Shown one piece after another: positions 1 to 64,000 of a DNA stretch of 64,000 bases. How positions within the stretch are numbered: position 1 is the first letter of the stretch; each line of letters begins with the position of its first letter. Made by a program: the position numbers and the translations under genes. The DNA lies in IMG/VR virus record IMGVR_UViG_3300034683_000333; one strand, written 5' to 3'. Under the pieces are notes generated by a model that was not told where the DNA came from, made no database searches, and worked only from the letters and a program-made list of their open reading frames with translations. The stretch is from a virus.

Positions 1-513
1 GTATTCTTTGCCACTAACTTCTGGATTAACTATTTTGTGTGTATCAAATGGTGCTATTTCAACAACAACTTTAGTAACTGGTAGTATCTTGGCTATTAAA
101 TTAACCAGTCTGATGTGTGCATCAACCCTCCATTGAACACTTGGTGCAAGCCATCCTTTGTATCGACGCCTGTTCAAAAATCTTGGTTTTCTATATCTTC
201 TCTTGCGATATCTTCTAAACCTTCTGTGTTCTCTTCTCTTCAGTAGCAACTTTCTGATATCTTGTCTAAGTTCAACTTCAGCACTGCACAATTCTTGTTT
301 GTTTGTTACTGCTGAAATACCAACTACTTTTGAACCAATGTCTATTCCGACAGTAACAGGTTGTGTATAGGTTGTAGTATCATACAATAGTTGAATTGTA
401 AATGGTTCTCTTCTAACAACTTTAGCAAGACCTTGTTTTAAAAGTCTTCTAACTTTACCATGTCTTTTTGTTGGCATAAGTGGTTTACCATCTTTTGAAA
501 TAACGTACACCAT
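1..513 (-). CDS. iscB: IscB RNA-guided endonuclease (RRXRR/PLMP N-terminus), 3' end runs off the window
   Basis: ATG at 513 after SD aaaggagg. Reads MVYVISKDGKPLMPTKRHGKVRRLLKQG...VTVGIDIGSK (RuvC-I)...RRFRRYRKRRYRKPRFLNRR...GWLAPSVQWRVDAHIRLV. Open to position 1, so it is absent from the ORF track. Both Trp codons are TGG. Confidence 0.92.
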   Translation of the reverse strand, partial: MVYVISKDGKPLMPTKRHGKVRRLLKQGLAKVVRREPFTIQLLYDTTTYTQPVTVGIDIGSKVVGISAVTNKQELCSAEVELRQDIRKLLLKRREHRRFRRYRKRRYRKPRFLNRRRYKGWLAPSVQWRVDAHIRLVNLIAKILPVTKVVVEIAPFDTHKIVNPEVSGKEY

Positions 514-519
514 ATGTGG

Positions 520-776
520 TAAGCCTCCTTTGAAGGAGTTAGGTGCTCATCCCCAATGTTAGACTGGCTTGTTAGGTATGTACCACTGTCCCTACCCCTC
601 AGGACTGTTTAGGTACATACGACAGAGCCTGGAACTTGAGCAGCATCCCAGGGTGTCATGACCAGTCTAACGTAGTCCGATAGGAAGATTAACTTCCCCT
701 GGCTGAGGGTAGTCAACTAGGGCTTGGCAAGCCCCCACTTCAAAAGCCGTTAGGCTTTAAGTGGTGGGTAGTTGAC
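520..776 (-). ncRNA. omegaRNA (HEARO-like) upstream of iscB
   Basis: Begins GTCAACTACCCACCAC and contains GTTGACTACCCTCAG, CTACGTT and ACATTGGGGATG, directly upstream of the iscB SD. A near-identical copy lies at 35913-36152. Confidence 0.85.
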
Positions 777-777
777 A

Positions 778-1625
778 ATGAATCTACATCCATCGATTTC
801 CATGTACTACGAATCCAACTTAAATCGCTGGTTTTTGCACCAGAAACCATAGCCACAAAATATTTATAACTATTCTAGTTTACCACGAAATGTTATTAAC
901 AATGTATATTTTGAATACAAGAATAAACGGTTGAGTTTTGAAAAGGTTCACATAATCATGACGGCCACTAATGACTGTCTAAGAGAATCCATGCACTCAA
1001 ACAAGATTATTGGAGATAAGCAACCACTTTTTTAGTTTGATGCTGGTAATGATCTCCCTTATGTTGAGTACCTGGCGAGTCTTCCAAATTCACACTTTAT
1101 TATACTTTATAGGAGAGACTTTAAAAAATACATTGATTCGGTGATCAATTGGGTACGTGGAGATTTTCCTAAAAAAAAAGAGAAATCTTACCCGAAGTGA
1201 AGTCCAGATTGTCTTCCTTTTCGTCCATTCCGTTGAGGTTATTAAAATCTATTGAAATTATATCCGATAGACCATGTTATGTGTGTTCCATAGAACAACT
1301 TTTTGAATCGTTTGAATATCACATAAACAATATGTATCAACTTGTCGATGTAAATAATATATGGACGTTTGAGGCGAAGAAGTATCCAGATGGTTACACA
1401 AAACAACTCAATGAGTTATTACATAAGAAATTTTTAAATTTTAGTATGCTCAAGGGGAAATATCATCATGCCAAATCGCTTACAAAAATAGACAATAAAC
1501 ATTTAACTGTATATAAGCATGAAAATATGATAAATCAATTATTAAGCAATCATCAAGACATTCACGAAATTAATGAATTGTACAATGAGCATATTTTACG
1601 TCTCAATCAATATGTTAAACCTTAA
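778..1625 (+). pseudogene. Sulfotransferase-like gene, lacking its N-terminus and split by a -1 frameshift at an A9 run (1171-1179)
   Basis: With TAG=W it reads MNLHPSISMYYESN...IIGDKQPLFWFD...HFIILYRRDFKKYIDSVINW, then shifts into ORF 1197..1625 (YVCSIEQLFESF). This resembles the Sulfotransfer_3 motifs HP.I..E, GDK.P and I..RD. The N-terminal P-loop (RSGT) is missing, probably cut off by the IscB element. Confidence 0.45.
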
Positions 1626-1690
1626 ACCAACAATTGCTTTGATTACTCAAGTATTGATAAATCATTTTTTGACGATTCTGAAAAAAATTC

Positions 1691-1719
1691 TTGACACGAT
1701 CGCTTCGTTATGATAAATT
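1691..1719 (+). promoter_or_regulatory. sigma70-type promoter (TTGACA-17-TAAATT with extended TG)
   Basis: TTGACA at 1691-1696, a 17-nt spacer ending TGA, TAAATT at 1714-1719, upstream of SD AGGAGGG and ATG 1766. Confidence 0.6.
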
Positions 1720-1765
1720 ACGATTAACAGTAAGGGTTGGATGACTCAAACATAGGAGGGCAATC

Positions 1766-2094
1766 ATGGAAAAGCGATTTCTTTTCAGCGATGTCGAAAG
1801 CGTTAAGAAGGAGATTGGGCAGATTCTTGATACTGTAGAACGTGGTAATCGGTCTCGTCTCATTGAACGTTGGTTTGTATTCGATTACTTGAATCTGCTC
1901 GAAGAGCACAATTACGGCTATAAGTCAAGTTGTTGGGTGAAGACGGGAATGCCTTTTTTATCCTCGGACAAGTGCGACGAGCACTCGTTCGAGCTGGGCA
2001 TCGTGATCTTGCCGAACAATACATAAAAGAGGCGACGAGTGGAGATTACGATCACCTGTTGAGAGTCACGATGAAATATGTAAACGTTTATTGA
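1766..2094 (+). CDS. Small conserved phage hypothetical protein with an apparent -1 frameshift near 1922
   Basis: The N-terminal half is in ORF 1766. Frame 1924..2094 reads VKLLGEDGNAFFILGQVRRALVRAGHRDLAEQYIKEATSGDYDHLLRVTMKYVNVY, a motif pattern I recognise from small phage proteins. One extra A in TATAA joins the two halves. Confidence 0.6.
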
Positions 2095-2112
2095 AAATTT
2101 AAACCAAAAATG

Positions 2113-2141
2113 AGGCCGCCGAATCTTCGGCGGCTTTTTTA
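2113..2141. terminator. Rho-independent terminator between convergent genes
   Basis: GCCGCCGAA-TC-TTCGGCGGC followed by a T tract. Confidence 0.8.
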
Positions 2142-2948
2142 TTTACAAAACGACCACAAAAGGAAGGCGACCGATGCCACGGAATCAATGTCACCCCCCA
2201 TCTTTATACATGTGTTCATAATCGAATGAAGTTGATCGATTTCATTTTCCTTCTTTTCGGCAAAATGGAGTGCCATAACAGCGTACATGTATGTATTTTT
2301 TACAGTTGTGTTGATTGGATGATATCGACAAAATTCTTCCATTGTAAGTTTGTGATAATGTCCTTTCAGTTTTGGATATTTTTTTGTTTCTTTACACTGT
2401 TTGATATGGTCAACCATTAAATTGATGACTTCATCAACTTCTTTGTGGTGATGAGTTAAATTTACGTATCTGTGAATAATCCATTTAATTTCCCGTTCAC
2501 TGAAATTTCCAAACGTTTCATATGTTTTCATCACTGGATAAATGAGAACAATTGCTCCGTTTCCACACGAATTGGCATCCATGGAAATTTCATAAATTTT
2601 TTGCAATTTAGTTTTGTGGTTATCAGGTAGTTTTTTGAGATAGTCAATCAGCAAGAAAAAGTTTTGCCAAGTTTTTCCATATCGAGTTGCACGACGGTTT
2701 TGCGCCAAGTAAAGGCACCAATCCCATAGTGTTTTGTCAAGATCATCTTGAATTTTTTTATTTTTTACAAATTCATAGAAGCACCGAACGATATCCGATT
2801 CATCTGAACCAAATGTGTCTGGTGTATCAGCAATCCTTAGAAATTTTTCTTTTGATATCCTTGTATCTGATAAATCGTAAGCCACGCCGGTTTCATAGTG
2901 TTTTCCAATTTTATCACCCAACATAAAGTAACGAATATGACGATCCAT
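2139..2948 (-). CDS. ADP-ribosylglycohydrolase (DraG/ARH family)
   Basis: Motifs MLGDKIG, SDES, NSCGNGA...IYP, LTHHH and MGGDIDSVASVA. No TAG; ends TAA. Confidence 0.85.
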   Translation of the reverse strand: MDRHIRYFMLGDKIGKHYETGVAYDLSDTRISKEKFLRIADTPDTFGSDESDIVRCFYEFVKNKKIQDDLDKTLWDWCLYLAQNRRATRYGKTWQNFFLLIDYLKKLPDNHKTKLQKIYEISMDANSCGNGAIVLIYPVMKTYETFGNFSEREIKWIIHRYVNLTHHHKEVDEVINLMVDHIKQCKETKKYPKLKGHYHKLTMEEFCRYHPINTTVKNTYMYAVMALHFAEKKENEIDQLHSIMNTCIKMGGDIDSVASVAFLLWSFCK

Positions 2949-2959
2949 AAACTACTCCA

Positions 2960-3529
2960 TTAGTCTTCTATGGGTTTTTCTAGATTCTTGATATGATTAT
3001 CCAACTCTTCAAAATACTTATAAATTTCGTCCATATACTTTTCGCTAAATTCCGTTCCAGATTTGAAAAAGGATAACTTGAGTGCTGGCTTTTCGGTTTG
3101 TTTATTTGCTACATTTTCTCTTGCGATATTTAGTGATTGAAGCGGAATCTGATAAACAGACGCCAATGCTACATCAATAAGGTCATATCCAAGCAGGTAA
3201 CTATCTAACTCCTCAGTTTTCATACCACGAAAATCGTATTTACCATCAACGTATTCTTCCGTGTAGAATTCGTAGTCGTCTCCCAGGATATTGAGTTTTA
3301 CCTTTTTCAAAACAATAGGTTTTTTATACTCTGGAGATTTATATCCAGTTTTGAAAACCGCTTCTTTTCCGTGTTTTCCCACGAGTTTTTCAATTGCCGT
3401 TTTGTATCTTTCCGTTTCAACTTCTTCTTTGTATTTTGCAACTTTATCACGAAGTTTCTTTTTAATTTTATCCTTGATTTCTGGTGGTGCATGATCTATT
3501 GTATTGGTATACATAAATTTAGATTCCAT
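2960..3529 (-). CDS. Hypothetical protein (189 aa)
   Basis: Clean ORF with SD GGGAGA, ends TAA. Confidence 0.75.
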   Translation of the reverse strand: MESKFMYTNTIDHAPPEIKDKIKKKLRDKVAKYKEEVETERYKTAIEKLVGKHGKEAVFKTGYKSPEYKKPIVLKKVKLNILGDDYEFYTEEYVDGKYDFRGMKTEELDSYLLGYDLIDVALASVYQIPLQSLNIARENVANKQTEKPALKLSFFKSGTEFSEKYMDEIYKYFEELDNHIKNLEKPIED

Positions 3530-3546
3530 TTTTGTCTCCCTTTTGA

Positions 3547-4896
3547 TTATGTTCTTGGTGTTCTGTCAATCTTTTTGGGTCTTTTGTAAGCCATGGTGAA
3601 CAATTCCTTTTCTTTCTGAAGTGCTCTCCTGATATAATAGTCGTATTCGTTAATGTTGTCAACCTTTTTATACTTGCTCATCAATAATTGGTATTCAGAT
3701 TCATCAACAACGCCTTTAATTCCATGTTTTGTAAACTCTTCCTTGATGGTTTCGATTCGACTGTTCTATGTCTTAATATCTTTCAAATCTTTATTCTTTT
3801 TGCTAATATAGTCTGGAACGTGATAAACGTAAAGATTCCTTGTGTCGGGTTCGTATGTGGCACCCTCAACACCGTGCTTTAAGAGGATGTCGAACGCATC
3901 TTTTTCGGATAGGCCGGATTCACCCAAATTGAGTTTGAGTGATTTCCCCACTTCTTTTCCGATCTGCATATCTTCGATATCGAGTTTCGTAAGTTCGGTA
4001 ACGATACCCGCATCTTGGTCAAAAGTTTTGAGAAAGAGGGCAACTCTACCTAAAATGATGTCGGGGTCACCCGAAAGTGTCAACTCCATCGAACCCTCAT
4101 GGCCGCCGTCCCACATACCATGAGTGTATTTCACCTCCTCGATGTCAATAAATGGGCTGTCGAGTGCCGTATCCAATGTTCCGTTCATGATATCCCAAAT
4201 CTTCGACCAATCTCCCGTCTCTTGTGCCTCCTTCGTGTATTTTACGATCTTTCGAAGGTTCTTCTTCATGGTCTCCTCTCTTGCCGCCGAAAGATTGACC
4301 TTGAACTTTCTGGCCCTAGTCACATCAAAGGGACGAAACATGGCGATCGCATTGCGCTTGTCATCCATTTTATAGTGCATTCCTGCAAATCCACGCTCCA
4401 TGAGTTCCCGTTCGGTCTGGGTCAACGCTTCAGCGCCACCCCAAGCATTTTCCTTCCAATATTTGGCGATTCCGAGTTCGTCTTTTTGAAGATCATAAAT
4501 CTGGTCCCTTGAAATGACGCCGTAGTATTTGGGAAGATTTTTAAAACGATCCTCCGGCTCGCTTCCGGCTGAATAGTAGTAGATGCGGTCAACGTAAATG
4601 TCGGGAAATTGCATCTGACGTTTACGTTCTGCGCCCTGTTGTCCCTTTCCGTGGTATTTTGGATCGAGGGTTTTGAGGCTTTGTTTTCGTGAGTAATGTT
4701 CCAGATACATGAGATTTTTCGTGTCTTTCTTTCCTGGTTTCACTTCATTTGGGTTCACCCAACGGTGGGCAAAATAGTATCCCTTTTCTGTCCTTGGGTC
4801 CTTCACCATTACCCGCTTGAGTAACTTTGCCGCTTTTTTCGTGCTTTTGTCTGCTACACGCCATTTTATATTTACTTTGATAAGTTTTTTATTCAT
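3547..4896 (-). CDS. Putative virion-associated protein (449 aa) with a basic N-terminus and a possible ART-fold domain; 1 in-frame TAG
   Basis: ORF 3766..4896 ends at TAG but continues open to TAA at 3547, just before the next gene's SD. Motifs include HRWVNPNE and HYSRKQSLKTLDPKYHGKGQQGAERKR...RIYYY...EPE. Confidence 0.75.
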
Positions 4897-4923
4897 GTTT
4901 TTCCTCCATATCCGATATCATTA

Positions 4924-6777
4924 TTACTCTAAAATATATTCGAACTCTTTCTTTATTTTGCTAGTAAGATCATATAGTACATCAAAATCAAATTGATTAT
5001 ATGTACTTCCATACAAATAAGACGGATTGTTATTTAGCTATTTGTCGTAAAATTCTCGCTCAATAATTTTCTCTAAATGTTCTTCTGTGTATTTATCCAT
5101 CAATTTATTTAAATCATTAAGAGTGGTTTTTTCTATTATTTGTTTAATTAGTTTATTAACATGAGTGTCAAGTCTTTCAATTTTACCATCTTTGAAATCA
5201 CTAATAAGTGTTTTAATTGTATCATAATATTTATTATCTTTATCAGCCTACTTTATTTTCTTCATCTATTCTTTAACATCTTCATCGTCCATGTAGTATT
5301 GTCCTTGATATTTTATATCCGTAAGAACATCAACGATATCTCGTTCTCTATTGTTAATCCATTTTTCATATAGTTGATTTAGTTGTTGATATGTTTCTGT
5401 ATTTTTAACATTTTCTTTCATTTCATCGTAGGTAATCTTCGTTTTGTTAATTCTGTCGTAATTGTTAACAAACGCTTCTAATGTTTTTGCCTATGATTCT
5501 CTACCATATACCTTATTCTCTTCCCAGTTCTTGAATTTTTGGCCATCATACTAAAGACTTATGCGTGCCTCTTTGTTTCCATTATTATCCGCCATAAAAA
5601 CAACCCAGTCACCAGAACGATGAAGATTTGTGCTGGCGAGAAGATTGTAGTTATATATACTAACATTAACCATTTTTTTATCTCTAATCGATTGACAACT
5701 TGCAAATCGGTCGGATGGTGATATCGTTATAAATGCCAATGGATTTTTAGAAAAATAGACATAATCCTTATTCGGATCATTTACATCTTTTAATAGTGAT
5801 TGTATTTTTTGTTCAAGTTGTTCCTATTTTTTTAAGCGTTCTTTTGTAAATTCGTACTTTGGTATGGATTTGTTTTTTATGAGGTCGGTTGCCGAGATGA
5901 CCAACTATTTTGCATCCGCATTTCCGAACTATTCGTAGAGTTCTTTGATCCTTGGATCATCGGAAATGTGATTTCTGAGCGCCGTTTTGAAGTGCTTTCG
6001 GATCATTTCCGGGTCGCCTACTACGGCCTCGATATCGGGGTCCTACATTTTTTCTTTCAGCGAATTGAGATTAAGTTTCGTGAGAAGCATGTCTGATAGT
6101 TCCTTTTTTCTGCTTATTGGATTGGAAAAAATTATGGCCTTATAAAGATGTTTTTTAATAGCTTTGGGACCGTATTTTTGATATGCATTGTTCATTCTGA
6201 TTATTTGCGATATCTATTGAGTTTCATGATCGTCAAACAATTCCGAAATACTATCCTGAAAGTCAATATCATATACAAGTGAATCAAGTTTTTCTTTTTC
6301 AGACATATTGTGTTTTACTTTTATCGTAAATGGGTCAATTCGCTCAATTTCTTCGAAATCTTTATGTAAAATTTTTTCCATCTCATCTACTTTAACAACG
6401 ATATCTTTATACCACTCTTTACTTGATAATAATTCAGCTAGCTCACGTGGATATTTATGTGCTGGAATACCGGAAAATAACTCCTTAGATTTGTGAACTA
6501 TATCATTCTAAAAGTCAAATGATACTATTTCATCAACATCACTTCCGGTGAGTTTGCGAAATAGATTGTCAATAATAGTCCATGAAGTGGCTACATCGTC
6601 TCCATGAGAGTTTTGTGATATAATATTATCAACTTCATTAAACTAGTATATACTATCCATTTGTTTTTGTTCTACACCAATGGCCGTTTCTTGTAATCGC
6701 TTATGAGCTTTTACAAGTTTACCTTCTCTCAAATGAGGTTTTACGTTTACGAGTTTTTTTGTTTTTGGTCTTTTCAT
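4924..6777 (-). CDS. Hypothetical protein, 617 aa, paralog B (multiple in-frame TAG)
   Basis: One frame from ATG 6777 (MKRPKTKKLVNVKPHLREGKLVKAHKRLQE) to TAA 4924 when TAG is read through. Aligns along its length with 6789..8642, for example YVYFSKNPLAFITISPSDRFASCQSIR. Confidence 0.8.
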
Positions 6778-6788
6778 ATTTTTTATTT

Positions 6789-8642
6789 TCAATAATTAAC
6801 TAGTTTTGTTCCAGTCATCCATTCCCATTCTTCATTTATTTCATCTATAAGCTCATTGAAATCATCAGAATAGGATTCAGACAAAGTTTCATTATATCCA
6901 TACAGAAAAGAAGGATTTTGCTCACTAAATAATTGTTGATTTATTTCTTCTTCTAGCTCGCTAAGCATATCATGATAATCTCTATCATGTAGCATCTAGT
7001 AAACTTCATTTAACGAAGAAAGTTCTGTAATTTCGTTTTCAACTTCGTGAATCATATCATCAAAATATTTTATATCTCCGTTTTTCTATTCCTCAATTTT
7101 TTGTTGAATATCATCATACCAATTACCACCGCTATCCACTCTTTTAATTTTTTCAAGATAATAGTCTATTGTGTCCATATCATCTTCATTTCCAACCATT
7201 TCACGTAGATATCTAACAATATCACGTTCTTCACTATTTTTCCAGTCATTCCAATGGCTAGCCAAGTCGTCATATAACCCGGTTTTTCTTAATAATTCTG
7301 AACCGTTTATATCTGGTGGATGATCTGATATGCGATCATAATTGTGATAAAAACTTGATAAGAGTGATGACCAATTTCCAGTACCATAGATTGATCCTCT
7401 TTCGTGGTTGTAAAACTTTTCTCCATCCCACTACAGGCTTACTCTTGCTTCTTTTTCACCTTTCTCATTAGCCATGAACGCAATCCAGTCACCAGAATCA
7501 CTAAGATTGACTGCCGCAAGCACGTTATAGTTGTTTTCACCAAGTGAAACATAGTCACGGTGTCGGATGGATTGACAACTTGCAAATCGATCTGCTGGTG
7601 ACATTGTAATAAATGCTAGTGGGTTTTTCGAAAAATAGACATATCTATTGGTGCCTGTGCTTATTTTATTGAATCCGGCCTGTAGTTTTTGTTCATATTG
7701 ATTCTACAGTTTCATATTATTATCATTAAATTTATAGTCCGGTATTTCTTTGTTTTTAATGAGACCTGTAGCGGCAATCACAAGCGATTTAGCATCTGCA
7801 CTGGAAAATGCATCATATAATTTTTTTACTGTAGGATCACCTAAGTGGGTTTTGAGTGCTGTTTTGAAGTGTTTTCGGATGACTTCTGGGTCGCCCACGA
7901 CAGCCTCTATGTCTTCGTCCCACATATTTTTCTTTAATGTTTCTAAATTCAATTTCGCTAACAGTTCATTTGGTAGTTGTTTATCACTTGGTGATTCTGT
8001 TAGCGTTATGGCTTTATAAAGGTGTTTTTTTATGGCTTTTGGACCATATTTTTCATGTGCTTTCTTGAGTCTTTCCATTTGTTCCATTAAAAGTACCCGC
8101 ATTCCACCAAATAATTTTTCAACGATATCGACCAAATCGTATCGGAAATCATCTAATAATTGATTATTTTCAATTGTATCTGTTTCAATGCGAATTGTAA
8201 AAGGATCTTCACGCTTTACATTATTAAAATCTTTAACCAAGATTTCTTGCATACGATCAACTTCATCAATTATGTCTCGGTAAAAATCTTCGTCAATGAT
8301 AAGGTCTGCCAATTCGGATGGATGATGACGAGCCATTACATTCGCTTTGTTCTATTTAGCATCCTCTAATAAATCTTTCCACATACGAGGTTCTTTAAAT
8401 TCATCAACATCGCTTCCCAAAAGCCTTCTAAAGTTTTTGTCGATAACTTCCCATGATAAATCTTCAATATCTTCATTTTTTTGTGATATGTTATCAATTT
8501 CACTTAACTATCGTTCAGTGTCTTGCTTTGTCTATTCTTTGTCAACAACTTTTTCTTGAAGTCGTTTGTGACTCTTAACAAGCTTTCCTTTGCGTGTATG
8601 TGATTTAACCTGAACAAGTTGTTTTGCTTTCGGGTGTTTCAT
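6789..8642 (-). CDS. Hypothetical protein, 617 aa, paralog A (multiple in-frame TAG)
   Basis: ATG 8642 (SD AAGGAAGG; MKHPKAKQLVQVKSHTRKGKLVKSHKRLQE). Joins ORFs 7704..8336 and 6789..6995 in one frame; ends TGA. Confidence 0.8.
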
Positions 8643-8659
8643 TATATTACCTTCCTTTC

Positions 8660-12953: not shown

Positions 12954-14012
12954 TTACGCTAATCTCTAACCATGTTCATCATTGTAATAATACAAGTTAA
13001 ATGAAGTGTTTGTGTTCTATAATAAATCTTCCTCTAGCCCCATAATCTTTTTGCCATTCCTTAAAATTGTAACCGGATTGGATTCAAAACTATCTGCCCC
13101 GTTGATGAATTCAATTTTTGTTCCGAATACCGGATTAGGTTCAAGTGTTATATTGAAAGATCCGTTTGTACTGTTTACAAAACACACATCGTTTCCTTGA
13201 ACGGTGGTTGCCGAAGTTATATCTAGAAATCTTATTGGTGTTGATATTTCTGTTTGATCAATAAATGTAATACCAGTTTCATCTTGAGATACAACTAGAA
13301 CTTTACCTGCATTATTTGTATATGTAGTTGGTGTGTCATTCAAATCAATAAAGGTTGCGATAAGTTCTGAATCAGGTACCGTCTATGTACCATCGACGTG
13401 TTTTGTGATACTTGTTAGATCGTCGTTAACGTCGTACTAATAGTTTGTTGTGCACGTTACATCATTTACAATTGCAATTGTTTGAGTAAGATTGTTTGAA
13501 CTATCGTAAATATATGTAATGTCCTGAAGTACAGTTCCATCACTTAGAATCTGGGCACTCGTTAAATCTCCCAGTGGAGAATAGTGATACTGAGTAGTGC
13601 GTTCGTCAATTTGAAAATCGAAAGCCCGTACATAGTTCACAACAAAATCTGTTTCTCCTAAGACCTGATAGGGTCCAACGGATACGGGAACGGTCGTTTG
13701 ATCCCCACCACCACTTGATCCACCACTCACAATGCCGTGCTAGGTTGTTCCGTCGTCGATATAGAGTGTTCCAGACTGATCCCCGGAGGAGACAAAATAG
13801 GCACGTCCCAAAACACCGGGAGATGGACGATTATTAAGCGGACCGATTTCCACTTTGCCGATGAGCTAACCCGTGGTTCCGTCTGAAATGAAGAGTTCTT
13901 TGGTATCGAGTGAAAAGAACGGTTCTCCAGGATCGAGACGCAACAACTCGTTTGCCATCAATGCATCGTAGGTTGTTTTGTTTCCCCGTTTTAATTTTAA
14001 CGTTATGCTCAT
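12954..14012 (-). CDS. Tail-fibre-like protein (352 aa), several TAG
   Basis: ATG 14012 (MSITLKLKRGNKTTYD). The N-terminus is paralogous to 26242..27213; YIDDGTT[TAG]HGI aligns with WVDDGSQWLEI. Joins ORFs 13437 and 13017; ends HG[TAG]RLA-TAA. Confidence 0.8.
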
Positions 14013-14026: not shown

Positions 14027-17000
14027 TTACCAAATTATATATGTAAGCTTTTTCTTTGGATTTTTAGAAATCAACTTGTGTTTATGTTTGATTTCTATAT
14101 TACTTCCTTTTATCACATTTCCAGATGTCAGATAATCATTCAATAAATTATTAGCCCACAATTCCAACGAATCAACTTGCGAACGAGTTACATAAATGTT
14201 ATATTCTTTTTCTTCACCAAGTTGTGTATTTCCTGTCATATCTTCAATGGTCAATATATGGTTATCATTGTATAGCAATAATTTTCCATCGTTTATATCC
14301 ACTGATTTTCCATAAATAGATTCAGAAATTGAATAAAATTCTATTGTTGTCGTATCTAAATCAATTTCATAAAGTCCGTTTACATATCCAGTATCGTCTA
14401 CACCACCTATTACGTGTAGCTTATTATTGTATATTATACATCCTGGTGATTTTATACCTTTTGGAATGTATGCCTACTCTGAAAATACACCAGTGGAAAA
14501 ATCAAATGACTAAATAGTTGAAATAAGCGTTGTTGCATCACTTTGACCACCAATGATGAAACAAGTGTCGTTTTCCTTTGTGATTCCGAAGTTGGCGTTA
14601 GGTATCGGAAGTGTTGTATCAAGTATCAATGTAGTTGTATCACCGATGTGATAAGTCTCAATTGTGTTTAGACAATTACCGCTTTCATCCATTCCACCCA
14701 AAATCCAGATGGTGTTGTCGTGGTAGATAACTCCTGGGTTGGTTCGGTCTGTTGTGAGGTGTGCCACATTGGACTACGTGGTGCTTTCGATATCGAATAC
14801 CCAAATCGGCGCACCCATGGTTCCATCTGGTACACCAATGAAGAAAAGTTTTGTTGTATCAATAAGTTGTGGAACTACCCCACTGACTACCCCACCGACT
14901 CCATCAGTGACAATCCCATTTGGAACGTCACTGACGATCTCCCACAAATCGTCCACTTCATTATATCGATAGAGATGATCAAGAGCCGCAAATCCGGTTG
15001 TGCTGTCTTGACGAATCCAATTATTCCTAATTTTCATCATGGGTGTTGTTCCAAAACTCAAAAGCTGTTCGTTGGTTCCGTCGGTATATCTCCATAATCC
15101 TGTTTCTTCTGTATCGGGTGAAATAATCACACCATATCCGTTTGTTCCACTTTCGTTCCATAGGAAACCGACCGTAGCTCTACCTTTGACATTTTCCAGT
15201 AAACATTCTAAAGTTATGGGCCTTGTTGATGTTAAATCACGATATATGGACCCATAACCTTCCGATTTAAGACTGTTGTTTTTAATCGTCTATTCACCGA
15301 TTGTTGTGGTCTAATAAGATAGATCATCTGAATTCGTGAAATCAACAAAATGTTCAAACACATCTGTTGCATTAAATTTAGTATCTCCACTTATACTACC
15401 AGTTAAAACTGCAATGGATGATGTAAAATCTGAACTTACTGGTATATTTACCCAAACAAATGCCGTTCGATCGGGTTCTTCTCCCACAACATTTTCGACC
15501 TACATTGGATATTCTGTTTTTAAGTGTGTTGAATAAATGGCAATATCTCCATTGTCTCCGCTTTTGGTGGGAAATCGTAAGGATTTTCCATCCAATGAGA
15601 TGTGACAATGACTGCAATCGGATGATTCGCCGATTTTTAGAAGAATCTGATGATTTCCTTCAGTTATGTTTCCACCGCTTAGAAGTTGTAACTCCTTTCC
15701 AAATGTTCTGTTTCCTGGGAAACCACCACCCTCTTTTTCTGCTACCACAAATCTTGGGTTGCTCTTGTTATGTTTGAAAATCATTACATAATCAATGATT
15801 GTTTTTCCACCACGTCCATCGGAGTATTCTCCTTGCCCAAACTATGGATATTTTGAATTGTTTAGATAGATAGTATCTGATGTCGTAATGTCAATTGCGT
15901 ATCCATTGTTATATACGATTTCCCCATCATCTGAATAAGAAAATTTTGCCATTTCCCATGTATTTAACTGGGTTAAGTTACCGCTATTTATCGCCGATAA
16001 TTTGACTGATGTTGCATTTGGTATGGTTTTAAAAATTCCTACATCATCTGCTCCGACACCACTAACCGGACTCTGATAGAATACAGAATAACCACCTTGT
16101 TTTACAGAATGCAACTATTCACCGTTTATGTTACTAATTGAATACATTCTACCTTCACCAAAACCAAAATCACTATAATTCTCACTATCAAATTTACGCT
16201 TATATATACATGAAAAACCGTGTGTAACAGGTTGTAGTGCTGTTATTGAAACCTAGTTAATAACATTTGATGTTGGTGACAATACACAAGATCCATCTCC
16301 CTATGTGTAAAGATTGCTATTGAGTGATGGATTATAAAAATCATCAAATAAGATAAAAACCGAGTGTGGATTAGATGCATTGTTTATATTTTTGCTACCA
16401 AAATAACAATAAATTGTTTGATCTGTATCAAGATCATCCAAAACTTTTATCCACACATAAGCTGTACGATTAGGTTTTACACCACGAACATCTTCTACCC
16501 ACATTGGATAAATAGATTGTGATTGAGCACCGACAAAAAGGATGTCACATGGTGCATATTTTTTGGAAGGAAATTTTTCAGAAAGTCCATCAAGGTGAAA
16601 ATCATAATCGGATGAATTTGCTGATTCACCAATTTTCAATTGAATCTGATAGTCTTTGCCAGCACCAGTTGATCCTTTGATGACAATTTGTTTTCGATAA
16701 TTCCAGTTATTTATATATTCGATTTTTCTATAGGTAGTTGCTTCTTCAGTCCCGAAAGTCAATAGGGTATCGAACAACGTGTAATAGGTTGCCTTGATCC
16801 ATGCATCAGAACGAGCAACGGAAGAAAGCCTGACCTCACATATCGTTCCCCTGAACTGGTCTATTGTCGCCCCATCGTTATTATGATAAGAAGCTCGTCC
16901 AAACTTCCAACTTCTTGCGTTTGACGACAGCGTTACGCCAGATCCAGTAGTTTTTGCGGTGTTTACGAATAGTGCTGATCCGACGCCAGATTCATTTCTG

Positions 17001-27352: not shown

Positions 27353-27378
27353 GTTGAAAACTTCAAACATGGAGGGAT

Positions 27379-27530
27379 GTCAACTGCTCCCACTTAACTT
27401 CTGACGAAGTTTGAAGTGGGAGCTTGCGACTACCCAGTAGTACCAACGTGCTAAGCACTCCTACCTTCAATTGGTGTCGCATCAGGGCAGGTTGACGGCC
27501 ACCCAACCACCCAAGTCATGCTTGGATGGT
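27379..27530 (-). ncRNA. TnpB reRNA/omegaRNA (right-end derived)
   Basis: Structured region from the end of tnpB to the element's right end. The flanking ATCCCTCCATGTTTGAAG would serve as the guide. The 5' boundary is uncertain. Confidence 0.6.
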
Positions 27531-28637: not shown

Positions 28638-28762
28638 TACACCTCCTTTCACTAAAATATAGTATAACATAAAATTAGTGAAAAGTCAACTTTATGTAGA
28701 AAGGAAAGAAGGCGATTCCTCTCCAACTTTCGCTAACGCTTAGAAGTTGGAGTCTCCTCGCC

Positions 28763-46744: not shown

Positions 46745-47896
46745 TCAGACGAAGACGACCTTACCGAGGGTGTTGGGAGTCACCACCTCGAAGGCATCGC
46801 AACGATAAATGATCCGATAGGTGTTGGCGTTCTTCTCGGTGATCGGAGGCGTGGTGCCCACGAGATAAGGAGCAAACACACCGGAGAACACTTCGTGTTC
46901 GGGATAGTTACAGGTCATGAGAACGCCGGGCATGAAGGGATCGTAGACGATCTCATAGGCCATGTTATACACACCGAGGAAAATACGACCGAGAGTGCCG
47001 GAAAATGGCGTGCCGCCGGGAACGATCTGGAGCTTTTCACGATCGAGGAGGGAGTAGGCATCGGGTCCCACAACGAGAACGTTGGGCTTCACGCCGTACT
47101 GACGGAAAATCTGAGCGGCAAGTTGTTCAATTACATCTCCAAATGTCTTCTTGTAGTATTCCAGCTTCACGGGATCGTTGCTAAAATCGGTGGGATTGAG
47201 TTCAAAATTTGCTGTGTTGACGGCGGGAACGTAGTTCCACAGTTCATTGATCACGTCGAATTCAGCCTCGTCCTTCAGCTTGCTGTAAATGGTGTTGGTG
47301 AGGCGTTCGTCAACGAAAGAATTGGCGTTTTCAAGGCCCATTACGGAGGCCAGGGCGATGATGGACTCAAGGGTCCATTCGGCATTGATTCGACGGATCT
47401 GGGTCGTTACGCTCTTGGAGCGAACGGAAGCCTTGATGCCACGGGCAACGGAGCTTTCGCCAACCATACCGTAGGTACGGGTGCGCTTTTCCCGAAGCAG
47501 GTCACCGGCAACCAGCGTGGTGTCGGAGGCACCGAGAGCGCCGGTCTCGGTGAAGGCGTCGGCATATTCCTAATCCACAAAGTAGATTACGGGATAAGGA
47601 GTTTCGGCCTTCTGCACGTTCACCACCTTGTCCACGATGGTGTTGATCCAGAACTTGGGAACCACAACGGAAAGTACATTGCTGAACACATCGATGTCGG
47701 ATGCGCTCATGCCACTTTCCATCGTCTTCTTCATGGTGATGAGCTTTTCGGAGTTTTCAAGCACGGACTTCACAACGGAGCGCTTGCTATAAGTGAGTGA
47801 ACTCCCGAGATTGTCCAGAATGGCATCAATACGATTGCGCTTTTCTTCTGGAATGGTGATGCGATTTAGAACTTCTAGGTTAGTCTGTAGCTTCAT
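46745..47896 (-). CDS. Major capsid protein, T4 gp23-like (383 aa), 1 in-frame TAG
   Basis: ORFs 47570..47896 and 46745..47467 are in one frame joined by TAG 47570 (YFVD[TAG]EYA). gp23-like order: VVNVQ...PVIYF, then SKSVTTQIRRINAEWTLE...DER...EINELW, then NVLVVGP...GIFAPY. C-rich third positions suggest high expression; ends TGA. Confidence 0.88.
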
Positions 47897-48012: not shown

Positions 48013-50730
48013 TTATTTAGACTTGATTAGCGTAACAATGTTATCAATTACGGTGTTTTTCTTATTGCTATTGTCTTCCATCACAACATTCTTGTTAATC
48101 TTAGCCGCATCTGCTGTAACCGTTTGGGTGTCGATGTCCATTTTTTCAAAAATGTCAGACACCACCAGCTTGTTCTTTCCGGCCATTTTTGCTAGCCATT
48201 TCTGAACAAGTTTCAACTGATCAGCGTTTTTGATTCCACTGATTTCGGTGAATACATCGTTGTCCAGCACTTCACGGAACCTGTAACAAAGTTCCATCTT
48301 CTTTTGCTCAAGTTCCATTTTGTCCATGAGCGCCTTGTGGTTGCTTTCCACTTCGTGGTATTTCGCCTCAAGGCTTTCCCGTTCTGACTTGATGGATTCC
48401 ATTGTCTTCTCAAGTTCTTCCTTTTCGCTCTTAAGTGATTTCATTGCGCTGCTAAGGGTTGATACTTGGTCACGTAACTTGCTAATTTCACCGTTCATCG
48501 TGTTGAAAATTTCAGAATTTTCCGTAGACTTAAACGCATCAACAGATTCTCCATTCACAATCTTCGCAACGTCTACTGCAAACTTATTGAGATGTTTTGC
48601 AAGAGTTACAAATCGATCCTCATTGAGTTCGATAATTGCATAATCCTCAATAAATGGATCGATGGTTTTAACGATAGAATCAAGGATAGAATACATTTCT
48701 TCATTGGTAATGTTTAGAGTTTCCTTGAAGTAATCACCATTGTCGATAAGTTTTTCAATCATCTTATCGTCAAGCTTAACGGAGATTTTGTCGGTTTCAT
48801 AGAAAACTTCCGCAAACTTGACGCTTTCACCCATCTTCATGAGATTTTCGGGTGCTTCCAGTTCCAGTTCCTCGTAATGGCGAAGGAGATGTTGGGCGGC
48901 GGCCTGCTTTTCTTCACCGGTTGCCACCACACCACCTCGTGCGCCACTTAGGGCCTGGGAGGCGGCGAGGAGTCCCTGCTTGCTCACAGATACGGAAACA
49001 ACATCATCTTCGACGCTCACCGCATGGTGGGGAAGCTTCCATTCCTCGGCCTTTTCGTAGCCACGAACGATTCCGAAAACCTCGTCAACGAGTGCCTTGA
49101 AATCTTCTTCTTCGAGAAGTGCATCTTCCTTGACCTTTAGAACCATGGAGCGGACTTCATCGCCATTCCACTTTTCTTCGTTCAACTCATCCGTCTTATT
49201 CATCAAGGAAGCATCGGCCACTTCCTGCTTTCCATCATCACCGGCATCACTATCATCATCCTGGGGTTCATCGTCGGTCTTCATTTCGGGCTTATCGGAA
49301 CTATCCTTGAGTTCGTTCCAAAGACACACAAAATATTCCTTTTCTTCGGCCATTGTGGAAAGATTCTGGTGAACCGCATCCAGAACTTCTTCCAGATCGC
49401 CTTCATCCACGGAATCGGCGATAATTGTTTTAAGTTCGTCTCCGTTGAGAACAAATCCGTTGTCAACAAGTTCTCCAAATTTTTCGTCTCCAAATAGCTG
49501 AACAATTGTCTTTAGTGCATCCATGTTAATTTCCTTGAGATATCCACCAACCCATTCTTCAACGGATTCCTTGGTTTCTTCCAGCGATTCAACAACCGCT
49601 GAAATAGATTCACGAATTTCGTCCGTTACTTTGTAGTCTTCCTTGATGTTTGCGGTCATCCATTCATCAATGTTGTCGGTGGTTAGTTCAACAATTTCAT
49701 CCATGTTGTCAAAAATCAACGCCAAATCATCAAGAACGTTGAACATGTAGTTCGCATCTTGTAGTTTTTCCTTGTTAATTTTCATGTCCAAATCCTTCCC
49801 CTTAAGTAAAAATTTTAATTCATCCAACGTTGTAGTTGGTTTAACATGCTCCTTGAGCAGTTTATCATTTACCTTCATTGCACAAAGCGCAACGGGTGAT
49901 TTTACATCTATATATTCTTCGGAGATGTAGTTAAAAACCACATCATCTTTTGTAACATGTTTATTTGTGTTAATTGTATCTGTTACGTTTACACCAACAA
50001 TGTCATATTTTGTTGATTGACATAGAAAATCACCGGGATATGTTACGATATCAAATCCAAGTAGGCGAAGCACATCAATTTGAGAAACGTAATCGGAATC
50101 TACATCCCAAAAATCAAGGGATTCGAATACTTCCTTAAGATAGGTGATTCCATTGAAGTTATTTCTATGTGTCGGTCGATCATACTTTTGTATTCCAGCC
50201 ATGAATCCACGCTGTGAAATTCCTATTACCGGATCAACCGATCGCATGAAATAATCAATGAGTTGTTGTTTTACCAAAACAAAATCAAGAATGATTGCCG
50301 CATGTTTTCTTCCTTTAATATTTATATATTCAAGATTTGCATCAAGAATATATCCAGCGATATCCTCATAACGATTGTTTTCACCCATGTTAGGATCTTC
50401 AGAATCTTCCGTGGTAGGATGACTATCAAACATCATTCTGTAGTAATTTTGTTCATCTATTAGTTTCTTATATTTATGATAGGCTTCTTCAATGGCTTCG
50501 TTCGAATAGATTCTGTTTTTACTAATTTCGAGATTTCCAACTGTTCCAATACCACGCAAAACGATGTTGAAAAGCTTTCCTTGTTTATAGAGTTCGACAG
50601 CCTTTTTCCATTTACCGTCGTCTCGATTTGAAAATATATAAGAATCGACGGTGATGTTGGTATTTCCAAGCTTTAGTGGTTGAATATGTTTTGCGTTGTC
50701 AAAATAAGATAATTCTGCCATTTTTTGCAT
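48013..50730 (-). CDS. Prohead protease (gp21/S77-like) fused to an acidic coiled-coil scaffold (905 aa)
   Basis: N-terminal KNRIYSNE...FDSHP...IGISQRG...GFDIVTYPG, then long acidic and coiled-coil regions, directly upstream of the capsid gene. No TAG. Confidence 0.75.
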   Translation of the reverse strand: MQKMAELSYFDNAKHIQPLKLGNTNITVDSYIFSNRDDGKWKKAVELYKQGKLFNIVLRGIGTVGNLEISKNRIYSNEAIEEAYHKYKKLIDEQNYYRMMFDSHPTTEDSEDPNMGENNRYEDIAGYILDANLEYINIKGRKHAAIILDFVLVKQQLIDYFMRSVDPVIGISQRGFMAGIQKYDRPTHRNNFNGITYLKEVFESLDFWDVDSDYVSQIDVLRLLGFDIVTYPGDFLCQSTKYDIVGVNVTDTINTNKHVTKDDVVFNYISEEYIDVKSPVALCAMKVNDKLLKEHVKPTTTLDELKFLLKGKDLDMKINKEKLQDANYMFNVLDDLALIFDNMDEIVELTTDNIDEWMTANIKEDYKVTDEIRESISAVVESLEETKESVEEWVGGYLKEINMDALKTIVQLFGDEKFGELVDNGFVLNGDELKTIIADSVDEGDLEEVLDAVHQNLSTMAEEKEYFVCLWNELKDSSDKPEMKTDDEPQDDDSDAGDDGKQEVADASLMNKTDELNEEKWNGDEVRSMVLKVKEDALLEEEDFKALVDEVFGIVRGYEKAEEWKLPHHAVSVEDDVVSVSVSKQGLLAASQALSGARGGVVATGEEKQAAAQHLLRHYEELELEAPENLMKMGESVKFAEVFYETDKISVKLDDKMIEKLIDNGDYFKETLNITNEEMYSILDSIVKTIDPFIEDYAIIELNEDRFVTLAKHLNKFAVDVAKIVNGESVDAFKSTENSEIFNTMNGEISKLRDQVSTLSSAMKSLKSEKEELEKTMESIKSERESLEAKYHEVESNHKALMDKMELEQKKMELCYRFREVLDNDVFTEISGIKNADQLKLVQKWLAKMAGKNKLVVSDIFEKMDIDTQTVTADAAKINKNVVMEDNSNKKNTVIDNIVTLIKSK

Positions 50731-52840: not shown

Positions 52841-54082
52841 ATGAGTGATGATATTATTCTATCAATTATCAAAACGCTCGAATCGGTTCTCTCCAATGTT
52901 CGTATAACAAATCGGAAGGGGGATGTGTTTCTTGAATCCGATTGTCCTTATTGCGGAAGGTCGAAGAGCGGCCATCCCCATTTTTCGGTTCTCATTCAAC
53001 AAACCGATTCTGGAAAGATCACTGGATGTGTGGGATGTTTCCGATGCGGTGAAACGAAATCGTTGACCCGATTTTTGCTGGAATATAAGAACGTATTTTC
53101 AACAATTGGTTTGACAAAAACCGTAATCAACGAAAATATTGAGACCGTTCCAGGGAATAAGGCACGAGAAAATGGTTTTTTATCAGCCGTTCGTTATTCC
53201 AATCAACGATTTATTGATCGACAGCTTTTTTACAAAAAACTTTTTCAGAAAGAAAATGCGGTACAAATTGCACAAAATAAACTTTTAGCATTTAAATATG
53301 TCAAGGATCGGTTGAAAATTCAAAGTGAATTGACGGTTTTTGATGCCTATTCCATGCTTCATCGACTTCATGTCAATACCAAGTCCTATTCTGATGGTAT
53401 GGTGATGCGATTTCAAAATCATATCGATTATGTCTTTGAATATGGAAATAATCCTAAATATATTCAGCTAAAAGAGCCGATGGATATTAAGCTATTCGGC
53501 AAGGACACGATTTCATATAATATATCTTCATATCGAAAACATTTTTATGGGGAAAAGCGTGAACCATATATTCTTGGGCAAGATATGGAAATGAAACCCG
53601 TTGTTTTGTCTGAAATATCAAACAAGTATGATACACTGAATATTTACATAGCAGAAGGTGTATTTGACACACTGACTATGTATTTTCATAATCATTACAT
53701 GAACATCCATTTCGAGAACATGAAGAAATACGCACAATTTTTTGTCGCAACGGGATCGAATAAGTTGGAAACAGTTGTTACGAATAGTATTTATGCCCTA
53801 ATGAATATTGATAATCCAGGTAGTCTTGGAATTCCAAAACAATTAAACGTTGTGTTTGTTCCTGATCGAAACATGAATTGGAAAAGGTATTTATTGCGTC
53901 TGAATAAGTTTTTTAGAAAATCGGATATCGTGTCACTTTTGAGATCGCTTTCTCTGCAATCGTTGAAAATATATTACATAGACATATATTCGTTGGATGG
54001 TAGTCCATCTGATATTAATGAATATCTCATGCAAAATCCTCTTACAAAACTTAATGCGGTTGATGCAATAAGAGTTGCATAA
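52841..54082 (+). CDS. DNA primase (Zn-finger plus TOPRIM, gp61-like)
   Basis: CPYCG...HF...CFRCG zinc ribbon, IYIAEGVFDT and FVPDRN...SDINEYL. No TAG. Confidence 0.8.
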   Translation: MSDDIILSIIKTLESVLSNVRITNRKGDVFLESDCPYCGRSKSGHPHFSVLIQQTDSGKITGCVGCFRCGETKSLTRFLLEYKNVFSTIGLTKTVINENIETVPGNKARENGFLSAVRYSNQRFIDRQLFYKKLFQKENAVQIAQNKLLAFKYVKDRLKIQSELTVFDAYSMLHRLHVNTKSYSDGMVMRFQNHIDYVFEYGNNPKYIQLKEPMDIKLFGKDTISYNISSYRKHFYGEKREPYILGQDMEMKPVVLSEISNKYDTLNIYIAEGVFDTLTMYFHNHYMNIHFENMKKYAQFFVATGSNKLETVVTNSIYALMNIDNPGSLGIPKQLNVVFVPDRNMNWKRYLLRLNKFFRKSDIVSLLRSLSLQSLKIYYIDIYSLDGSPSDINEYLMQNPLTKLNAVDAIRVA

Positions 54083-58643: not shown

Positions 58644-58653
58644 AAAAAAAAAT

Positions 58654-61430: not shown

Positions 61431-61480
61431 TTTAACTATCCTTTTTTATTTGCCTTTTATGTAAAATTAGAAAAAATTAG

Positions 61481-62518
61481 TTAAAAGTAGTTGTTAAATA
61501 ACCACCACGAGTTCTCCTTCGTGGTAACCACCCCAGCCTGGACAATCCTTTGTATTTTTGATTCAAGGTTTGCCTCATGTGGATTGAAAAGCTTATTCAC
61601 GTTAAGAATACCGGCAAGTTCCGTTGCTAAATAACTAGCCGTTCGTTTTACCCATTTCTTTTCTTGATTTGAAAGTTTACCCTCGCTTGTGACGGATTTG
61701 TAAACCATCCATGTGGGAGCATCGATCGTATTCCATGCGTCAACAAGCGTCCTCCTTCCAAGATAGGCACCGTAACGATCGAGTAAATCCTTGTTATTTA
61801 CGATTGTGTCAAGTAGATGAATCATCTGAAGGGCGTATTCTGAACTACGGTTGATTGAATTTTTGATTCCATCAGCCGTAACAAGTTTGATGCGACGACT
61901 TGGTTTTCCCTTTTTTGTCTTAACACCGCCCTTTGCAAATTCCTTAACGGTCTTTGACTTATTGTGTAGTTGTTTCGTTTTCTTGACAAACACGTCTTCG
62001 GGAAGTACAAATTGGCGACGAGAATTATTTCCGTTTAGAATATCTGCAATTTGGCGTGCATATTTAGGCATAACCATTGTAAGTTTTTCACGCCATAGAT
62101 TGAATTCACGGGCATTTTGTTTCTTCTATCCAGCAAGACCCCCCATTCGTCGAATATGTTCAATGGATTGTGATACAAAAGCTCCATCGGGCTTGTTGAA
62201 ACCAACGTTATTTTTGAGTATCGTTTTCCAAAGTTCCTTTTCCATATCCGTTTGAAATTCATACAACATAAGGAAATTTTCAAGTGCATAATCTTTATCG
62301 CTAGACAATTTCTTTCTAATATTTCTGTGATCACATTTTGGTTTATCGACGAGAAAATAATCAACACCTTCCTTGAGTTTTTTGAATGACTCTTTGTTGG
62401 GATCAACATAATATGTGCGAAGAATTGTTACTGGAGTCTTACTTTTACCAACTTTTGTATTCACAAGCTTTTTTATCTTCAGCAACTTGGAATAGTTCTT
62501 TTTTCGACCCATATCCAC
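61481..62518 (-). CDS. 345-aa paralog of the N-terminal half of 58683..61430, 1 TAG
   Basis: ORFs 62126 and 61481 join. GGLAG[TAG]KK aligns with GGFRNWEK; both share KNNVGFNKPDG and MPKY..Q.ADILNGNN. Confidence 0.8.
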
Positions 62519-62577
62519 ATTCCTATTTAGTTTTTGTTAATTAGTTGGTTTATTTATGAAGCCTATAAAAAGCGAAA

Positions 62578-62602
62578 GCCCGCCATGAATTGGGTGGCGG
62601 GC
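62578..62602 (-). terminator. Rho-independent terminator after the UDG gene
   Basis: GCCCGCCA...TGGCGGGC stem followed by TTTCGCTTTT on the minus strand. Confidence 0.7.
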
Positions 62603-62627
62603 ATCGAATTGGAAATGTATTTTTTTT

Positions 62628-63242
62628 TTATTCTAAAAGTGATTTAATCTTGCGTATCGCCTCAACGAAAATTTCACGATTATTGGGATTGTAAAAACAA
62701 GACGATGGATGAATACAATGAAGAACTTTGAAGGAATTTCCACCGAGAATTTCCATTTTCTCAATTTTGCCACAATCAGCGGTCACGCCGCTCATTTTTC
62801 CCCAAAAGAGTTGCCTCGGATAGGCCCCCAAAAGAAGAATGCTGTCAATGCCGAACTCACGTTTGATAGCATCGAGAAGGTTGGTACGCTTAAGAAAACA
62901 ACTCGCCATGGCATCGGGTGTGGGTTTTCCGATCCGCTTTCCGTTTTCGGGTGTAGGCATACAAAAGACGGTGTTTAAAATGATGAGATCATCCCTGGTC
63001 ATTCCAGCTTCCGACTGGAGAGTATCGGTTAGAAGCTTTCCGCTTCGTCCCACAAAAAACGTCCCCTCGGAAATCTCATCAACGTGGGGTGCTTCACCAA
63101 CGACAATAAGTTTTGGGTGTTTTCCAAACCAGGGATACGCCTTTCCATTCTTGTAAAAATCACAAAGCGTACAATCACGAACTTTTTCATGCACTCGTTT
63201 GATGAAATCGATGGGTCGCTTCATTTTCTTTACTCCTCTCAT
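62628..63242 (-). CDS. Uracil-DNA glycosylase, family 4 (4Fe-4S)
   Basis: CTLC...VVGEAPHVDE...FVGRSGKLL...LNTVFCMP...C...LLG...IHPS. No TAG; the start may be 63221. Confidence 0.9.
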   Translation of the reverse strand: MRGVKKMKRPIDFIKRVHEKVRDCTLCDFYKNGKAYPWFGKHPKLIVVGEAPHVDEISEGTFFVGRSGKLLTDTLQSEAGMTRDDLIILNTVFCMPTPENGKRIGKPTPDAMASCFLKRTNLLDAIKREFGIDSILLLGAYPRQLFWGKMSGVTADCGKIEKMEILGGNSFKVLHCIHPSSCFYNPNNREIFVEAIRKIKSLLE

Positions 63243-63255
63243 AATGGGTAAAAAA

Positions 63256-64000
63256 TTATGATTTTTGCAATCTATAATTGTGCCACTCTAAGATGTTCTT
63301 CGTTTCATTATATACATCTTTGAAACGTTTTGCAATAAGATAATTTTCCTTGAACATGTCGATTGAAGTAGCTCCATAGTGAAGGCTCTGTATCTTTTCA
63401 AAAACTCCAAGTCGTTTTAATATATTGTCATACGATTCTGTTTCAGGTAAAATATCTTCGATAACTTTTTCAAGTTTTTTAGTGAACTGTATACTTTTTT
63501 CAACGTCGTAATTCTGGACGATAGCCAAATGTTCACCATCTAATTCTTCAAATTGTTTTTCACGTTTCAGGAGATGATCATACACACCGTCCTGAATATC
63601 ATACTCTTTTATCGGTCTATCTTTATTTGCTATTGGCATATTTTTCCAGAACGTTTTATAAATATCTAAATCATTCATTCCGTACCATTCTCCATATTCC
63701 CAATTGACAAATTCATTTTCCAATAAAGTCACGCTTTTTCTGCTTGTTTTTTCATATCCGTTTTTTGTTTTTTCTGCCGTGTACCACACAAAATCATCAT
63801 AACTGTTGGCCCAAATGTGACTTAGGATATTTGAGTTATTAGTATTTACCGTATCTGAAATGCTTTGGCAACTTTCAAATCTTCCCTTTGGACTCATTGA
63901 TAGAAAATCCAATGGGTTGTTGCTAATATAAGAATATCGTAGACTGCTGATTTTTTGACCTATTGTGGATTGAAAAATACTTAAAAGATTTTTTTGAAGT
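63256..64000 (-). CDS. Hypothetical protein, 5' end outside the window
   Basis: The frame of ORF 63256..63912 stays open to the window edge. Six Trp codons, all TGG; ends TAA. Confidence 0.7.
   Translation of the reverse strand, partial: LQKNLLSIFQSTIGQKISSLRYSYISNNPLDFLSMSPKGRFESCQSISDTVNTNNSNILSHIWANSYDDFVWYTAEKTKNGYEKTSRKSVTLLENEFVNWEYGEWYGMNDLDIYKTFWKNMPIANKDRPIKEYDIQDGVYDHLLKREKQFEELDGEHLAIVQNYDVEKSIQFTKKLEKVIEDILPETESYDNILKRLGVFEKIQSLHYGATSIDMFKENYLIAKRFKDVYNETKNILEWHNYRLQKS

Follow-up and report, generated by a model that had tools for sequence, protein, structure and literature searches.

Tryptophan at in-frame TAG codons of a large amber-recoded phage, and a possible phage-encoded tRNA(CUA)/TrpRS pair as decoder

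Results

TAG as a sense codon

We analyzed a stretch of 64,000 nucleotides from IMG/VR virus record IMGVR_UViG_3300034683_000333, referred to below as the window. Its products include a terminase, a capsid protein, a transglycosylase and tail-fibre-like proteins, identifying it as phage DNA; UDG and an ADP-ribosylglycohydrolase were also found in Pfam and PHROGs scans (Table 1). Pfam was run over all open reading frames (ORFs) of at least 150 amino acids with TAG read as X, and PHROGs also over ten of the longest. Exact matches to proteins of the window occur on public contigs, the longest of which has 195,227 bp. We find that the codon TAG is used as a sense codon in this phage, with alignments pointing to tryptophan (Trp) as the amino acid, and we consider how TAG may be decoded.

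In the standard code, ORFs of at least 300 amino acids cover a fraction of 0.31 of the window. Coverage rises to 0.78 when TAG is read as sense, and reaches just 0.33-0.37 when TGA or TAA is read as sense instead. The 34 genes contain 128 in-frame TAG and 253 TGG codons, so that TAG makes up 33.6% of the Trp-type codons, and they terminate with TAA (24 genes) or TGA (10 genes), never with TAG. This confirms that TAG is a sense codon in this phage and that TAA and TGA are still stops. The window thus has the features of recoded phages of the type described by Borges et al.: coding density is restored by reading one stop as sense, the recoded codon is avoided as a terminator, and some of the genes can be read in the standard code.

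The amino acid at TAG

The genome was followed past the window, up to ~83 kb, on contigs of 100% identity (L059, L073 and L074); L076 represents a diverged strain covering the region just past the window. We compared codons between L073 and L076 in three genes just beyond the window (2347 aligned codons, 65% amino acid identity). TAG was exchanged with TGG 21 times, with TAT 4 times, with CAA once and never with CAG. Of 53 TGG codons, 37 were unchanged, 12 had become TAG and 4 had become other codons, while none of 71 Gln codons had turned into TAG. In this alignment, TAG behaves as a synonym of TGG. The phage also encodes an AdoMet decarboxylase (PF02675; L074:8907-9317, at ~74 kb of the genome). 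When the protein is aligned with PDB 2iii, the Trp of its HTWPE motif is encoded by TAG.

Homologous proteins gave the same answer. In Logan and ENA assemblies we found three distant relatives (L039, L040 and L041; terminase identity 52-54%), which are amber-recoded as well. Their TAGs stand opposite a Trp of the window protein in 14 of 23 informative cases and opposite Gln in none, often within conserved strings such as ISTPWMYNSWFWG and AYILWYATFN. In the terminase the relatives' TAGs lie mostly opposite conserved Trp residues (for example ISTPWMY, AYILWYA and NRGFWLI). As these relatives share the recoding and carry TAG where Trp is placed, the TAG = Trp assignment is a trait of a clade and not of a single genome. 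The DUF5662 protein of the window was compared with 150 homologues: Trp predominates at two of its TAG sites (72% at site 19, 49% at site 143), site 8 is occupied by Leu (45%) or Trp (17%), and site 138 by Pro (59%). At all four sites Gln falls outside the six commonest residues listed. Summed BLOSUM62 scores over 18 TAG sites of the window ranked Trp first (46.9), followed by Tyr (23.2), Phe (3.6) and Gln (-16.2). In the giant ORF of the window, 5 of the 6 TAGs inside DUF2341 copies fall in two aromatic columns of the paralogous repeats (W5/Y1 and Y3/W2). No full-length homologues of this ORF were found, and its internal repeats were missed by BLAST.

The preliminary description had presupposed, without saying so, that TAG encodes Trp. 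This premise is borne out by the codon swaps between strains, the HTWPE motif, the homologue columns and the BLOSUM62 ranking. By these alignments, the meaning of TAG as Trp and not Gln is confirmed; it is well supported, and it is unusual. A Gln assignment had been considered from composition, as TGG is present at a normal frequency (1.36%) and CAG is depleted, and was overturned by the alignments. Ordinary phage code 15, in which TAG is Gln, is what public gene callers have assumed: database proteins of the lineage are translated with TAG = Gln, CAG is rare relative to CAA in the TAG-rich genes, and one TAG/CAG polymorphism exists (see Discussion). Against these points stand the swap counts for CAG and CAA compared to TGG, the negative Gln score over the 18 sites and the place of Gln outside the six commonest residues listed for the DUF5662 columns, which together effectively refute code 15. 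The exchange of TAG with TGG and the retention of TAA and TGA as stops correspond to code 32; alignment of TAG with Gln and its exchange with CAG or CAA, as expected under code 15, is not the pattern found. Public code-15 translations of this lineage are hence wrong at every TAG, with Gln placed where Trp belongs, and homology searches and structure prediction that use them are therefore damaged.

Uneven use of TAG among genes

TAG is concentrated in structural and tail genes. Seven genes lack it altogether while holding 30 TGG codons (P = 4.6e-6): those for TnpB, an Rnl1-type RNA ligase, a 905-residue ORF product, a primase-like protein and an Mtd_N/DUF2793 protein, and two small genes. This subset is therefore translatable by an unmodified host. 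By analogy, the uneven use matches the recoded-phage model, in which standard-code genes would be expressed first and recoded, mostly structural genes once a suppressor is present. The base 3' of TAG does not differ from the base 3' of TGG (p = 0.43), and there is therefore no sign of a read-through context. Likewise, the 128 TAG sites have no common sequence context, which argues against editing of the mRNA by a phage deaminase that would convert UAG to UIG, to be read as UGG. We know of no such editing system in bacteria or phages, and consider this explanation extremely improbable.

Search for decoding genes

ARAGORN detected no tRNA or tmRNA gene at positions 1-64000. Infernal searches against 4227 Rfam families (E<=1) likewise returned no tRNA in the window; they returned two HEARO RNAs and otherwise only chance-level matches. 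Among the window ORFs of at least 150 amino acids, Pfam (and PHROGs for ten of the longest) gave no match to class I or class II synthetases, to RF-1/PCRF or to tRNA-modifying families. When E. coli tryptophanyl-tRNA synthetase (TrpRS), release factor 1 (RF1), GlnRS and LysRS were used as tblastn queries against the window and its extension (L059 and L073), the best matches were only at E~1. ARAGORN found no tRNA on L073, L074 or L076 either. The preliminary statement that the window has no tRNA, synthetase or release-factor gene therefore stands, and the absence is confirmed for the window and the next ~19 kb. Taken alone it is ordinary, because the window covers only 64 kb, one third, of a genome of ~195 kb. 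As TAG is read as Trp with no decoding gene in the window, such genes must be located in another part of the phage genome or be supplied by the host.

That the host does the decoding, by reading TAG as Trp or by carrying a suppressor, so that the phage needs nothing, would account for the failure to find the machinery in the 83 kb examined. However, the division into TAG-free and TAG-rich genes fits a switch driven by the phage in a standard-code host, and to our knowledge TAG = Trp has not been reported for any bacterium. We regard host decoding as very unlikely.

In E. coli the identity of tRNA-Trp resides in G73 and the CCA anticodon, and CUA versions of this tRNA are charged by GlnRS (PMC2965240). 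The preliminary description had given the Su7 suppressor as background on this point, and correctly so. Since Su7 is charged with Gln, a specific problem of recognition must have been overcome in this phage. We searched 2.9 million viral contigs for a tRNA pattern with acceptor stem CCCCGUG/CACGGGG, anticodon loop CU-CUA-AA and discriminator U73. Exactly one match was obtained, a genuine CUA tRNA at L062:1884-1957 with C1:G72, U73 and an encoded CCA end. It has a D stem of 3 bp and the T-loop TTTAATT, and lies directly 3' of genes for tRNA-Gln(UUG) and tRNA-Gln(CUG), of which it is not a paralogue. The IMG/VR fragment L062 carries 14 tRNA genes within 6.4 kb (377-6724). The L062 tRNA had no match in GenBank phages. 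Its C1:G72 and U73 contrast with the A1:U72 and G73 of a bacterial tRNA-Trp suppressor of the su+7 kind. This shows that a CUA tRNA of the C1:G72/U73 type exists in phages; L062 comes from a different phage and is no proof for the present genome. A search of GenBank phages with E. coli TrpRS returned standard-code, apparently bacterial fragments.

Genes, relatives and mobile elements

The features of the window are collected in Table 1. Its one tRNA-related gene encodes the Rnl1-type RNA ligase, a candidate tRNA-repair enzyme by sequence family and outside decoding proper. T4 Rnl1 mends tRNA that has been cleaved by a host anticodon nuclease, and such repair may matter to a phage reliant on a special tRNA.

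Table 1. Features of the 64-kb window, with numbers of in-frame TAG and TGG codons where given.
Positions	Strand	Feature	TAG	TGG	Remarks	Assignment
1-513	-	IscB-type RRXRR ORF			follows the HEARO RNA at 538-776; cut by contig start	
538-776	-	HEARO (IscB omega-RNA)			153 bits	Rfam
4924-6792	-	622-aa ORF, family unassigned	12	5	most TAG-enriched long gene; p=0.003	
12954-14012	-	Mtd_N tail-fibre-like gene	6	0	all six Trp-type codons are TAG; p=0.0014 vs window average	
14027-25777	-	giant 3916-aa ORF	42		DUF2341 repeats, LamG, Kelch	Pfam
26242-27213	-	Mtd_N + DUF2793 tail-fibre-like gene	0	9	p=0.03	
27378-28779		TnpB element			~95% similar to L177:9890-11300	
27516-28670	-	TnpB (IS605 OrfB)	0	6		
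32333-32827	+	DUF5662 protein	4			Pfam
34070-35248	-	T4 Rnl1-type RNA ligase (PF09511)	0		standard code	
35926-36152	-	HEARO (IscB omega-RNA)			160 bits; no IscB ORF after it	Rfam
42034-42957	+	SLT transglycosylase	2		codon 131 is TGG/TAG in relatives, codon 228 is W/W/Y	
44399-46141	+	T4-type terminase large subunit	3			Pfam/PHROGs
46745-47896	-	Gp23-like major capsid protein	1			
48013-50730	-	905-aa ORF, family unassigned	0	8	in the set translatable in the standard code	
52841-54082	+	primase-like protein (phrog_47)	0			

Relatives of this phage are scarce in the collections searched. The terminase had no close relatives in IMG/VR and, in JGI metagenomes, only two short contigs; in GenBank phages there was no near-identical DNA, and terminases were only ~23% identical. 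Contigs L001-L018 were rejected as relatives, having been retrieved through the gene that proved to be TnpB. Between 22.8 and 61 kb of the window, the strains found in sample 3300005882 show 99.7% identity to it. In the genome beyond the window (64-83 kb, the region of the Kelch and 1518-residue genes), strains of the same sample share only 67-83% nucleotide identity (L073 versus L076). The genome is a mosaic that includes a hypervariable, putative host-recognition module.

The nearest bacterial relatives of the window TnpB occur only in Bacillota, with Anoxybacillus at ~76% followed by rumen and gut Lachnospiraceae, Erysipelotrichaceae and Butyrivibrio at 57-63%. As a pointer to a Bacillota host this is weak, because the element is mobile and a copy of 95% similarity is present in an unrelated recoded phage. 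The latter was recognized by six-frame comparison on L177, a 125-kb ENA contig of a TAG-recoded phage with 27% GC. The exact TnpB protein of the window was found only in its own single neighbourhood. P0033 was rejected as a second TnpB of this genome, since the phage that carries it, although TAG-recoded, is unrelated and has 27% GC, and none of the members listed for ten neighbouring TnpB clusters lies on the 195,227-bp contig. A third copy of the HEARO repeat, with a complete RRXRR-HNH gene (422 aa) after it, lies ~5 kb past the window (L059:4395-5944). It seems that OMEGA elements, being mobile, pass from one amber-recoded phage to another and remain free of TAG.

Discussion

We propose that the window forms the initial 64 kb of a phage genome of ~195 kb that uses code table 11 with TAG = Trp, and that TAG is decoded by a tRNA(CUA)/TrpRS pair encoded by the phage itself. 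For genome, code and decoding pair taken jointly, we estimate a probability of about 60%. The proposed tRNA would carry anticodon CUA and read TAG; it would be charged with Trp by a TrpRS that the phage expresses from a gene free of TAG in another part of its genome. Together they would form a self-contained pair for changing the code, akin to what Jade-type phages use for TGA-to-Trp. If the GlnRS, TrpRS and LysRS of the host did not read the acceptor end of this tRNA, the problem of Gln mischarging known from Su7 would disappear. The preliminary description had predicted a Trp-type tRNA(CUA) with G73 in the rest of the genome, probably along with a TrpRS of the phage, RF2 or an RF1 antagonist, and named a host that is recoded or lacks GlnRS as the alternative; its prediction of phage-encoded decoding is plausible. 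Whether the pair is a natural TrpRS/tRNA-Trp(CUA) of exactly this kind, with a C1:G72/U73 acceptor end invisible to the three host enzymes, through which the virus imposes TAG = Trp on a standard-code bacterium, we judge to be an even bet.

A simpler arrangement would be that the phage supplies only the tRNA(CUA) and that host TrpRS charges it, with no dedicated synthetase. Borges et al. rarely found synthetases in phages and suggest charging of the suppressors by enzymes of the host (10.1101/2021.08.26.457843), and no synthetase is present at 1-83 kb of this genome. However, bacterial TrpRS reads C34, C35 and A36, and on this ground we consider charging by the host enzyme unlikely.

Several observations weigh against decoding by a phage-encoded, Trp-specific pair. 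Positions 1-83 kb of the genome contain neither a CUA tRNA nor a TrpRS, and the pair is argued by analogy. In the window and its extension, no release-factor gene was found (tblastn with RF1, Pfam RF-1/PCRF) and no RF1 antagonist turned up. The CUA tRNA that could be examined, that of L062, belongs to a different phage and has no look-alike stretch in the sequence index of the scanned windows. Of 9 window TAG sites for which relatives were compared, about 4 stand opposite residues of the K/Q/E type. Finally, codon 119 of the terminase (44753-44755, + strand) is TAG in the window, CAG in the 99.7%-identical strain L092, and CAA, GAA and CAA in the three relatives of 52-54% identity.

The polymorphism at codon 119 is the sole difference affecting a TAG over the ~37 kb compared; note that a strain of 99.7% identity gave almost no power to test the meaning of TAG. 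Judging from the pattern of fragments in JGI code-11 gene calls, TAG is probably the commoner of the two alleles. Either the protein tolerates a Q119W exchange beside Walker A, or TAG is to some extent translated as Gln. The latter would be a case of mixed decoding, in which TAG is translated mostly as Trp with appreciable Gln (through GlnRS reading U35), Lys or Tyr, tolerated by the proteins. Consistent with mixed decoding are, besides codon 119, the several window sites opposite K, Q or E, the 4 swaps between TAG and TAT and the Pro column at DUF5662 site 138. On the other hand, 12 of the 16 changed TGG codons had become TAG and no Gln codon had, making TAG a near-exact synonym of TGG, and TAG occurs at invariant Trp positions such as that of HTWPE, where Gln would probably be harmful. 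We consider mixed decoding quite unlikely, and specific insertion of Trp by a phage-encoded pair as the better account.

In the literature searched, we found no report of TAG-to-Trp in phages. For phages that do not share the code of their host, Borges et al. describe TAG-to-Gln and TGA-to-Trp and no other change; they report TGA-to-Gly only in phages whose host has it too. Their rationale for the first two is that host GlnRS and TrpRS easily accept such suppressors (10.1101/2021.08.26.457843). A TAG-as-Trp phage breaks this rule. If the reading is true, the stop-codon assignments by which phages depart from the code of their host would number three, TAG-to-Trp joining TAG-to-Gln and TGA-to-Trp. 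If the pair is real and orthogonal, it would offer a natural starting point for placing Trp analogues at amber codons.

The phage resembles code-15 phages (crAss-like, Lak and Garnet; 10.1101/2021.08.26.457843, PMC9523058) in several respects: in-frame TAG occurs mainly in structural or late genes and never as a terminator, some genes stay compatible with the standard code, and it is a large phage known from metagenome assemblies. It differs in the amino acid, which is Trp here and Gln there. With the known TGA = Trp systems it would share the principle, proposed here, of a phage TrpRS and a suppressor tRNA that put Trp at a stop codon. The Jade-phage module for TGA-to-Trp consists of suppressor tRNA, TrpRS and RF1 (10.1101/2021.08.26.457843), and the phage TrpRS:tRNA-UCA pairs AP1 and HF2 have been characterized in a 2025 preprint (PMC12636597). 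These modules are themselves written in the standard code, and AP1 is orthogonal in E. coli. Unlike the system proposed here, they read TGA by anticodon UCA, with RF1 being part of the Jade module. TAG adds the problem of U35 and GlnRS, and the corresponding module was not found at 1-83 kb of this genome.

Formally, the code is the same as NCBI table 32, the plastid code of Balanophoraceae, in which TAG is Trp and TAA and TGA are stops. There it belongs to a reduced plant plastid genome, whereas here a virus would switch the code within a standard-code cell, an independent origin. A laboratory parallel is E. coli su+7, in which the tRNA-Trp anticodon CCA is changed to CUA: here, too, amber would be read by a tRNA of Trp origin whose anticodon differs from CCA by a single substitution. 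However, GlnRS charges su+7, and the residue inserted is mainly Gln, whereas the TAG sites of this phage behave as Trp. Phage CUA tRNAs giving Gln, Tyr or Ala are described in the 2025 preprint, none giving Trp: GlnRS:tRNA-CUA-59, TyrRS:tRNA-CUA-27 and, for UAG-to-Ala, tRNA-CUA-151; for two of these the paired synthetase was included in the tests (PMC12636597). They demonstrate that UAG can be assigned beyond Gln, but none inserts Trp, the residue at which TAG is placed in the present phage.

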